Of a DNA stretch of 64,000 nt, positions 7,818 to 11,074 are shown one piece after another (position 1 is the stretch's first letter; each line of letters opens with the position of its first letter). Below the pieces are notes generated by a model. That model saw only the letters and a program-made list of their open reading frames with translations, had not been told where the DNA came from and ran no database searches. The position numbers and the translations under genes were made by a program. Location: NCBI RefSeq assembly GCF_056746865.1, contig NZ_CM163382.1; one strand, written 5' to 3'.

Positions 7818-8663
7818 ATGACGCCCATTCTGAATCATTATTTTGCCCGTATTAACTGGTCGGGAGCTGCTGCGGTCAATATTGATACGCTGCGTGCATT
7901 GCACCTGAAACACAATTGCACCATTCCATTCGAAAACCTCGACGTTTTGCTGCCAAGGGAAATACAGCTTGATGATCAATCGCTGGAAGAGAAACTGGTG
8001 ACAGCCCGTCGTGGTGGTTACTGTTTTGAGCAGAATGGCGTGTTTGAGCGGGTGTTACGCGAGCTGGGGTTTAACGTTCGCAGCTTGTTAGGGCGCGTAG
8101 TGTTATCAAATCCGCCAGCATTACCGCCGCGCACCCATCGTTTGTTGTTGGTGGAACTGGAAGGGGAAAAATGGATTGCTGATGTCGGTTTCGGTGGACA
8201 GACGCTAACCGCGCCGATTCGTTTAGTTCCCGATCTCGTGCAGATCACGCCACACGGAGAGTATCGGTTGTTACAGGAGGGTGATGATTGGGTGTTGCAG
8301 TTTAATCATCATCAGCACTGGCAGTCGATGTACCGTTTTGATCTCTGCGAGCAGCAACAAAGCGATTATGTAATGGGCAATTTCTGGTCTGCGCACTGGC
8401 CGCAGTCGCATTTTCGCCATCATTTGCTGATGTGCCGCCATTTGCCGGACGGCGGCAAGCTGACACTGACCAATTTTCATTTTACCCATTATGAAAATGG
8501 GCACGCGGTGGAGCAGCGAAATCTACCAGATGTGGCGTCGTTATATGCCGTGATGCAGGAACAGTTTGGTCTGGGCGTAGATGATGCGAAACATGGCTTT
8601 ACTGTGGATGAGTTAGCGATGGTGATGGCGGCGTTTGATACGCACCCGGAGGCGGGAAAATAA
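7818..8663 (+). CDS. nhoA: N-hydroxyarylamine O-acetyltransferase
   Basis: 281-aa translation MTPILNHYFARINWSG... with arylamine N-acetyltransferase catalytic region GGYCFEQN; length matches NhoA. Confidence 0.9.
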   Translation: MTPILNHYFARINWSGAAAVNIDTLRALHLKHNCTIPFENLDVLLPREIQLDDQSLEEKLVTARRGGYCFEQNGVFERVLRELGFNVRSLLGRVVLSNPPALPPRTHRLLLVELEGEKWIADVGFGGQTLTAPIRLVPDLVQITPHGEYRLLQEGDDWVLQFNHHQHWQSMYRFDLCEQQQSDYVMGNFWSAHWPQSHFRHHLLMCRHLPDGGKLTLTNFHFTHYENGHAVEQRNLPDVASLYAVMQEQFGLGVDDAKHGFTVDELAMVMAAFDTHPEAGK

Positions 8664-8734
8664 TTTATGTCAGGTTGCCGGATGCGGCGTAATGAACTGC
8701 ACCCCAAATGTTGGACATAATCTGACATCTGAAG

Positions 8735-9265
8735 GTGCAGTTTATGAAACATTCATTTGAAGTAAAACTTGCCGCTGTAAATCATTACCTGGCTGGTCAT
8801 GCAGGCATCATTTCTACGGTAAAACTCTTTCAACTTTCTCACACCAGCCTCTCACACTGGATTAATCTTTTTCTTCTTCACGGTCCTCGGGCACTGGATT
8901 GCAGACACAAGCGTAGCTATTCTCCTGAAGATAAACTTTGCGTGGTTCTTTATGCTCTCGGGCATTCTGAGTCTCTACCCCGGGTAGCTGCCCGGTTTAA
9001 CATTCCCAGCCACAACACGGTTAAAAACTGGATAAAAGGCTACCGCAAATCTGGTAATGAGGCCTTTATCAGGCGCAGGAAGGAGAAAAGCATGACCCGT
9101 TCTGATGATACCCATGAAAACGAGGCAAACATGACGCCGGAAGAGATGAAGAATGAGCTGCGTTATCTTCGCGCAGAAAATGCATATCTGAAAGCCATGC
9201 AGGAGCATCTCCTGGAAAAAAAGCGCCAGGAGCTGGAGAAAAAACGAAAGTCATCCGGAGCCTGA
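8735..9265 (+). CDS. IS3-family transposase OrfA (HTH DNA-binding and leucine-zipper part)
   Basis: 176 aa; HTH region followed by heptad leucine repeat (NELRYLRAENAYLKAMQEHLLEKKRQELEKKRK); ends just after an A6 run. Confidence 0.8.
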   Translation: MQFMKHSFEVKLAAVNHYLAGHAGIISTVKLFQLSHTSLSHWINLFLLHGPRALDCRHKRSYSPEDKLCVVLYALGHSESLPRVAARFNIPSHNTVKNWIKGYRKSGNEAFIRRRKEKSMTRSDDTHENEANMTPEEMKNELRYLRAENAYLKAMQEHLLEKKRQELEKKRKSSGA

Positions 9266-9369
9266 GGTGCGGACACTGCCAGTCTGACCTGTTAAAGGCT
9301 GCAGGGCTGGCCAGAAGCACGCTGTACTACCAGCTGTCACTGCAGAAGGCTAAGGACAAGTATGCTGAT

Positions 9370-10124
<755 letters not shown>

Positions 10125-10180: not shown

Positions 10181-11074
10181 TCAGAATTCAATTGCCCATT
10201 CGGCATGAAACAAAATCACCGCTGTGCCAGAAATGGTGACTTTCTCCGGTTGGTTATTGCGAATTGTCACCGTCACTTCAATCACGCCGTCACGCCCCAA
10301 TGCGCGCCCCTGATGGCCTTTAACATGCAACACGTTGCCATCGTGGGGCAATACGTTGTGATGTACCAACCATGCACCCATCGGGCCATTGGCATTGCCA
10401 GTCACCGGATCTTCCACAATACCAATCGCAGGCGAGAACATGCGACCATCGGTTTCATTTTTGCCTGGGCGGATCTGGAACGGGAAGAAACCATTGCAGC
10501 CAATCTGTTTGCTGATAGCGGTCAGCGCAGCAAGATCAGGCGAAAGGGCGTCGATATCCACTTCTGGTTTCAGTGGGATCATCACTTTTGAGTGTCCTGT
10601 GGTTGCCACCTGAATTGGCAAGCCTGACAAAATATCGTCCTCAGTGAGATGAAGCGCGTTGATAATCGCTGCACGTGTTTCACCTTCCAGCGGTGGCTCA
10701 AAGCCCGGCGTACCTTGTTCCAGCGAAATACGATAATCATCGTTGTGATTTTCGATAGTCACGCGATGTTTTCCTGACAGTGACGTTTGCCAGACCGTGC
10801 AATTTCCTAAACCTAACACCTTCGCACGTACATAGTGCGCAGCTACTGTCGCGTGACCACAAATCGGCACTTCAACTGTTGGCGTAAAGTAGCGGATGCG
10901 CACATCGCTGTCGTCGCTGTGCAGCAGAAAAGCAGTTTCCGAATGACCTAATTCGCGGGCGATAAGCTGCATTTGCGCTTCACTGAGATTATCGGCGGGG
11001 AAAACAACACCGGCAGAATTGCCGCGAAACGGTTGTGAGGTAAAAGCATCGACGTGGTACACCTGCGGTTTCAT
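10181..11074 (-). CDS. yddE: PhzF-family (phenazine biosynthesis-like) isomerase YddE
   Basis: 297-aa translation MKPQVYHVDAFTSQPFRGNSAGVVF... typical of PhzF/DAP-epimerase-like fold proteins; matches YddE. Confidence 0.85.
   Translation of the reverse strand: MKPQVYHVDAFTSQPFRGNSAGVVFPADNLSEAQMQLIARELGHSETAFLLHSDDSDVRIRYFTPTVEVPICGHATVAAHYVRAKVLGLGNCTVWQTSLSGKHRVTIENHNDDYRISLEQGTPGFEPPLEGETRAAIINALHLTEDDILSGLPIQVATTGHSKVMIPLKPEVDIDALSPDLAALTAISKQIGCNGFFPFQIRPGKNETDGRMFSPAIGIVEDPVTGNANGPMGAWLVHHNVLPHDGNVLHVKGHQGRALGRDGVIEVTVTIRNNQPEKVTISGTAVILFHAEWAIEF

Follow-up and report, generated by a model that had tools for sequence, protein, structure and literature searches.

The -1 frameshift site of the IS3-family element IS1397 in the window (the whole stretch of 64,000 nucleotides that was analysed) is, with a probability that we put at roughly 85%, the slippery heptamer A_AAA_AAG at 9217-9223, which would act as part of the IS1397 recoding signal. 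This signal is already published and is a textbook recoding signal of the IS3 family; nothing is new here except a small evolutionary note on a possible relocation of the site. The initial annotation had described the region as a programmed -1 frameshift region of an OrfAB transposase, and the PGAP annotation of identical DNA, the protein domains and the published signal all bear this out and place the transposase in the IS3 family. The slippery site that it had proposed, a run of six adenines further downstream, does not fit the data.

The IS1397 element and its insertion site

The element in the window is a copy of the known IS1397 (IS3 family, IS150 group), and 1461 bp of the window are 100% identical to RefSeq copies named 'IS3-like element IS1397 family transposase'. 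The element and its flanks consist of the following features:

8693-10124, + strand: IS1397, 1432 bp with ends 5'-TG...CA-3', defined by its inverted repeats and by 100% identity to annotated copies
8693-8717, + strand: left terminal inverted repeat (IRL), arm TGAACTGCACCCCAAATGTTGGACA, which pairs with 10100-10124
10100-10124, + strand: right terminal inverted repeat (IRR), 25-bp arm, from an inverted-repeat search
8677-8692, + strand: left half of the target REP/palindromic unit, GCCGGATGCGGCGTAA
10125-10140, + strand: right half of the target REP/palindromic unit, AAACGCCTTATCCGGC

Both terminal repeats have 25-bp arms (TGAAC...GTTCA) and the length of 1432 bp fits the range of the IS3 family (about 1.2-1.5 kb). 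IS1397 lies between nhoA (7818-8663, + strand) and yddE (10181-11074, - strand), inside a REP/palindromic unit; REP targeting by IS1397 has been described (PMC1525189). When the two flanks are joined, they rebuild the REP unit GCCGGATGCGGCGTAAACGCCTTATCCGGC, and the insertion point is the loop of the palindromic unit. Identical copies are present in other E. coli genomes, many of them at the same nhoA-yddE site, and among the 5,426 complete genomes of the species about 1,700 have a near-full copy of IS1397; other strains have an empty nhoA-yddE site. In strain N3 the empty site reads gcggcgTAAAcgcc and the empty allele (L086:118-147) gccggatgcggcgTAAAcgccttatccggc. Compared with this allele, the filled site (gcggcgTAA-IS-AAAcgcc) has a net gain of 2 bp (AA), a number that is to be read with the reservation that the REP loop may be polymorphic. 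Target duplications typical of the IS3 family are 3-5 bp, and the apparent net duplication of 2 bp here is below this range.

Two further observations concern the element as a whole. An inverted repeat of 12 nt with 92% complementarity connects 8692-8703 with 8734-8745: ATGAACTGCACC pairs with GGTGCAGTTTAT, and the latter covers the likely Shine-Dalgarno (SD) sequence and the first bases of the ATG of orfA (8744). This pairing could hide the orfA start in transcripts that read in from outside. The IS1397 copy of E. coli UPEC 26-1 has a CDS span that is 5 nt shorter (opposite window positions ~9305-9310) and carries the annotation of a 'frameshifted' pseudogene, an example of a decayed copy among the thousands of IS1397 in E. 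coli.

Reading frames and domains

IS1397 has two overlapping reading frames:

8744-9265, + strand: orfA, encoding a 173-aa HTH DNA-binding protein, stop codon TGA at 9263-9265; the exact 173-aa sequence is present in NCBI
9157-9262, + strand: orfA/orfB overlap, 106 nt, preceded by an orfB-frame stop codon (TGA, 9154-9156)
9223-10092, + strand: orfB frame after the slip, encoding HTH_21 and the rve DDE integrase core, stop codon TAA at 10090-10092

Translation of all frames agrees with the initial annotation on the stop codon of orfA and on the -1 relation of the two frames (orfA codons start at mod3 = 2, orfB codons at mod3 = 1). The orfB frame had been thought to be open from about 9220; it is in fact open from 9157. 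The layout, with orfB in -1 phase and overlapping orfA, is as in the IS3 family, and joining 8744-9223 to 9223-10092 results in an OrfAB protein of 449 aa. In strain 2017C-4173W12, which has identical DNA, PGAP annotates one CDS in two pieces, with the remark 'programmed frameshift', that corresponds to 8744-10092 of the window.

Pfam searches identified HTH_28 on OrfA (E 7e-17) and HTH_21, rve (1.5e-21) and rve_2 on the -1 frame. The fused OrfAB protein scores 386 bits against the NCBIfam model NF033516 (IS3 family transposase; cutoff 160), and the alignment runs from residue 62 to residue 442, across the junction between OrfA and OrfB.

The slippery heptamer

The candidate recoding signal has the following parts:

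9217-9223, + strand: slippery heptamer A_AAA_AAG in orfA phase, from motif phase, fusion proteins in NCBI and the published cluster A_AAA_AAG_5
9201-9205, + strand: SD-like AGGAG, 11 nt before the heptamer, the likely upstream stimulator
9227-9264, + strand: predicted stimulatory hairpin of 38 nt with a spacer of 3 nt and a first stem of 4 bp; its 3' arm contains the orfA stop codon
9239-9244, + strand: A6 run in the phase G_AAA_AAA, with an in-phase A_AAA tetramer only; it forms the top pair and apical loop of the 38-nt hairpin

The orfA codons CTG GAA AAA AAG CGC contain a run of seven adenines (9216-9222) that was overlooked by the initial annotation; it is longer than the A6 run and begins just before the interval of 9220-9270 to which the frameshift had been assigned. 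We listed every in-phase motif of the 106-nt overlap: A_AAA_AAG at 9217-9223 is the only in-phase X_XXZ_ZZN heptamer. In-phase tetramers are found within this heptamer (A_AAA at 9217, A_AAG at 9220) and at three positions outside of it (A_AAT at 9178, A_AAA at 9241 and A_AAG at 9247). The sequence AAAAAAG is present 24 times in the 64-kb window when both strands are counted, with about 18 expected, and we estimate the chance that the overlap contains one with the required strand and phase at roughly 0.005. Five aligned IS1397 copies (97-100% identical) show no change in the heptamer or the GGAG; this conservation within E. coli says little, because the divergence between IS1397 copies is so small (aln_div 0.02, PMC4066793 Table S4).

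The phase of the motif, the frames, the hairpin and their accord with annotation and literature are all direct observations. In E. coli, the complete sets of tetramers and heptamers were measured by Sharma et al. 2014 (PMC4066793), and A_AAA_AAG was among the three most efficient -1 heptamers; in the surveyed ISfinder entries of the IS1 and IS3 families, this motif and A_AAA_AAA together account for 72% of all heptamers. IS1397 is cluster A_AAA_AAG_5 of that study (59 genes, SD 1.00, hairpin 1.00; Tables S4, S6 and S8), with a hairpin of 38 nt, a spacer of 3 nt, a first stem of 4 bp, the motif at codon 160 and a product of 449 aa. According to these authors, -1 PRF of IS1397 is 'safely inferred', not demonstrated. 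In the window, codon 160 of orfA is the AAG at 9221-9223, matching the published motif position, and heptamer, hairpin length, spacer, SD and product length are the same as in the reference IS1397, with no difference of substance. Comparison with the reference element speaks against the specific site of the initial annotation, as the published A_AAA_AAG at codon 160 precedes the A6 run by 22 nt.

IS150 and IS911 have the same A_AAA_AAG, the same two-ORF 0/-1 layout and a downstream hairpin, and IS911 also shares the upstream SD with IS1397 (PMC4066793). The differences are in the dimensions: the hairpin has 38 nt in IS1397 but 48 nt in IS150 and 57 nt in IS911, and the spacer has 3 nt in IS1397 and 6 nt in the other two. 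Frameshifting was demonstrated in IS150 and IS911, and only inferred in IS1397.

Probable stimulatory elements and competing folds

Hairpins were predicted with ViennaRNA, using the rules of PMC4066793, both after the heptamer and after the A6 run. These rules allow a start 4-10 nt after the motif and require a G-C closing pair with at least 3 further pairs and a dG of at least 7.6 kcal/mol; an SD-like sequence that precedes the motif by 6-17 nt is an optional stimulator, and the AGGAG at 9201-9205 is within this distance. The 38-nt hairpin agrees with the rules (offset 4, dG -12.4 kcal/mol) and is more stable than shuffled sequences (z -3.43; 2 of 200 shuffles were as good). Its lower stem reaches from C9227-G9264 to G9230-C9261 and is followed by a 2x2 internal loop, its upper stem reaches from C9233-G9258 to A9239-U9251 with A9253 bulged, and the apical loop is 9240-9250. 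The same hairpin is listed in PMC4066793 Table S8 (HP 38 nt, SP 3, st1 4). With 3 nt, the spacer is close to the lower limit of what is usual, which counts against the heptamer as the shift site. The common 97.7% variant of IS1397 differs at 9257 (G>A) and 9300 (T>C); the change at 9257 converts a G-U pair of the 38-nt hairpin to A-U and makes it slightly stronger (dG -13.1). No pseudoknot partner for the hairpin loop AAAAACGAAAG was seen when 9265-9400 was inspected by eye, and a search of the frameshift region against Rfam returned no family match, only chance hits with E of 2 or more.

The region 9199-9239 contains four GGAG-type segments close together (CAGGAG at 9200-9205, CUCCUG at 9209-9214, CCAGGAG at 9226-9232 and CUGGAG at 9233-9238), and these permit mutually exclusive hairpins. 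The alternative hairpin 9200-9214 (-8.0 kcal, z -2.5) would sequester the upstream SD, and the alternative hairpin 9206-9235 (-11.0 kcal, z -2.8) would have the slippery heptamer in its loop. The copy of E. coli MS6198 differs at 9228, 9244, 9257 and 9260: 9228 A>T places U opposite U within the lower stem of the 38-nt hairpin and 9244 A>G reduces the A6 run to A5G, and this copy is still annotated as a programmed-frameshift transposase.

Proposed mechanism

Most ribosomes that translate orfA would terminate at the UGA at 9263 and produce OrfA, the 173-aa HTH protein. A fraction would slip back by one base on A_AAA_AAG, with the two lysyl-tRNAs on AAA (9218-9220) and AAG (9221-9223) re-pairing on AAA AAA (9217-9222). 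Reading would then resume at GCG 9223 in the orfB frame, resulting in the 449-aa OrfAB protein with the junction ...LLEKK/APGAGEKTKVIRSLR.... The slip is probably promoted by pairing of the AGGAG, 11 nt upstream, with the 16S rRNA and by the 38-nt hairpin, 3 nt downstream, while the A6 run would be part of the hairpin loop and not a shift site. Slippage itself on the heptamer, and its rate, are inferred.

Fusion proteins in NCBI

Fusion proteins were built for every possible junction, and their exact sequences were looked up in NCBI. The product of a slip at the heptamer (...LLEKK/APGAGEKTKV...) matches a 449-aa entry named IS1397 family transposase. Every IS1397 fusion protein retrieved from NCBI has its junction within 9216-9224, and two NCBI proteins could be reproduced, solely with junctions in this interval: P0001 with a re-read base at any position from 9216 to 9223, and P0031, found on 234 contigs, with a re-read base at 9224. 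Identical DNA has led to two NCBI versions, ...EKK-A-PGAG (base 9216-9223) and the commoner ...EKK-P-PGAG (base 9224), and the difference between A and P at residue 161 is an annotation convention. We had also considered that the 'KKPPGAG' junction reflects a DNA polymorphism in the heptamer, and rejected this, as the junction arises from a re-read base at 9224 on identical DNA. All of the about 130 full-length IS1397 proteins that were retrieved (~130 of ~130) have EKK(A/P)PGAGEKTK or single-residue variants of it.

Alternative explanations

The initial annotation had proposed the A6 run, within GAAAAAAC at 9238-9245, as a possible slippery site. A -1 slip there would be either a single A-site slip on A_AAA (9241-9244) or a near-tandem slip on G_AAA_AAA, and the junction would then read ...EKKRQELEKK/TKVIRSLR.... 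The run is indeed inside the overlap and its A_AAA is an in-phase tetramer, and some IS3/IS1 elements have A_AA.A tetramers (PMC4066793). As the slippery site, however, we consider it very unlikely: in the phase GAG AAA AAA CGA it offers no heptamer for tandem slippage, it is placed in the loop of the 38-nt hairpin, ribosomes meet the heptamer at 9217-9223 before they reach it, and the published analysis names the heptamer and not the A6 run. Further, six tetramers are active, with measured rates between 0.26% and 5.6% even in the presence of the strong IS3 pseudoknot, and A_AA.A is the least efficient of them, whereas A_AAA_AAG is a top-tier heptamer (PMC4066793). Fusion proteins with an A6 junction (...KKRQELEKK/TKV...) are absent from NCBI by exact lookup, and none is among the about 130 retrieved IS1397 proteins. 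The A6 run may still serve as a minor second shift site, because an AGGAG (9228-9232) is situated 9 nt upstream and a hairpin of 62 nt (9250-9311, dG -23.4 kcal/mol) that agrees with the structural rules of PMC4066793 starts 5 nt 3' of the run; as a weaker add-on, the tetramer with this hairpin of its own could permit some further slippage, at a low level, ahead of the orfA stop codon. This 62-nt hairpin overlaps and competes with the 38-nt hairpin. It was rejected as the main stimulator: it is no more stable than shuffled sequences (z -0.61) and it is disrupted in the commonest 97.7% variant, where 9257 G>A and 9300 T>C cost it two pairs and the best fold of the segment begins 5 nt further downstream.

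Two explanations need no slippage of the ribosome. RNA polymerase could add an extra A at the A7 run, which would create a single frame for the same 449-aa protein. The reading GAA AAA AAA GCG gives the exact P0001 sequence, and because of this protein sequence cannot separate transcriptional from ribosomal slippage; moreover, transcriptional slippage is used by some IS elements (PMC1088944). In bacteria, however, productive slippage and counter-selection are seen at runs of about 9 A/T, in few species of 8 (PMC1088944), and the run here has 7; a ribosomal signal requires a heptamer in the correct phase, a hairpin at a suitable distance and an SD before it, none of which is required for transcriptional slippage, to which we assign a very low probability. 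There could also be no recoding at all, with OrfB (240 aa) translated independently from GTG 9370 as a separate polypeptide that acts together with OrfA. This GTG is the first canonical start codon (ATG, GTG or TTG) in the orfB frame, but no Shine-Dalgarno sequence is readable before it, similarity to the relatives in the orfB frame extends a further 132 nt upstream, up to 9238, and 9370 is precisely where the HTH_21 match begins, with position 6 of the profile, which means that a start there would clip the domain. With the full-length transposase model NF033516 aligning across the junction and the OrfAB fusion protein being the transposase in the IS3 family (PMC4066793), independent initiation appears extremely unlikely. 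The suspicion of the initial annotation that a start at 9370 understates the product was well founded, as the two-piece CDS of PGAP, the homology up to 9238 and the clipped HTH_21 domain show. A slip on A_AAA_AAG at 9217-9223 is the reading that we prefer.

Relatives of IS1397 and the position of the shift site

Relatives were searched in one genome per species; 580 were found, and the best 80 of these were analysed. They have 50-58% OrfB identity, with the exception of one partial E. coli copy with 99%, and none of these best 80 of 580 relatives has an identity between 58% and 99%. A protein search for relatives of intermediate identity returned only variants with 99% identity or more. The 80 relatives correspond to 58 distinct frameshift regions from Bacillota, Enterobacteriaceae and others.

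All 58 distinct regions have the same orfA/orfB layout as IS1397 and an in-phase heptamer in the overlap (A_AAA_AAG in 48, A_AAA_AAA in 10). In all 58, the heptamer encodes KK right after a conserved Y-L, and in 45 of the 58 the sequence is ENAYL/KK. About 6 nt past the heptamer, the relatives have a covarying long-range stem, CCTTAGTT...AACTAAGG: at one of its pairs, 27 regions have GC, 16 AU and 15 GU, and at another, 50 have CG and 6 UA. IS1397 keeps ENAYL (9176-9190), but continues with CTG AAA GCC and is without the stem of the relatives:

9190-9196, + strand: homologue of the heptamer position of the relatives, G_AAA_GCC, not slippery

The heptamer of IS1397 is instead 27 nt downstream of the position used in the relatives and has a hairpin of its own. 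Because of this displacement, the conservation across the family backs only the mechanism: the heptamers of the 58 relatives support -1 frameshifting for the group, not the exact site at 9217.

The element of K. pneumoniae ATCC 13883 (L016), probably ISKpn1, has the heptamer of the family at L016:1462 and a second in-phase heptamer, A_AAA_AAT, at L016:1492, which in an orfB-frame alignment is opposite the IS1397 heptamer. We consider the chances to be about even that the frameshift cassette of IS1397 was relocated: the ancestral site would have decayed to G_AAA_GCC, the family stem would have been lost, and a new heptamer with SD and hairpin would have arisen 27 nt downstream. The K. pneumoniae element could be an intermediate.

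For annotation, the consequence is that the transposase gene is 8744-9223 joined to 9223-10092 (449 aa), rather than the 240-aa ORF from 9370, and that the heptamer is the place to annotate the shift. If the relocation is true, a slippery site and its stimulatory structure have moved within a lineage, which would be a case of turnover of recoding signals.
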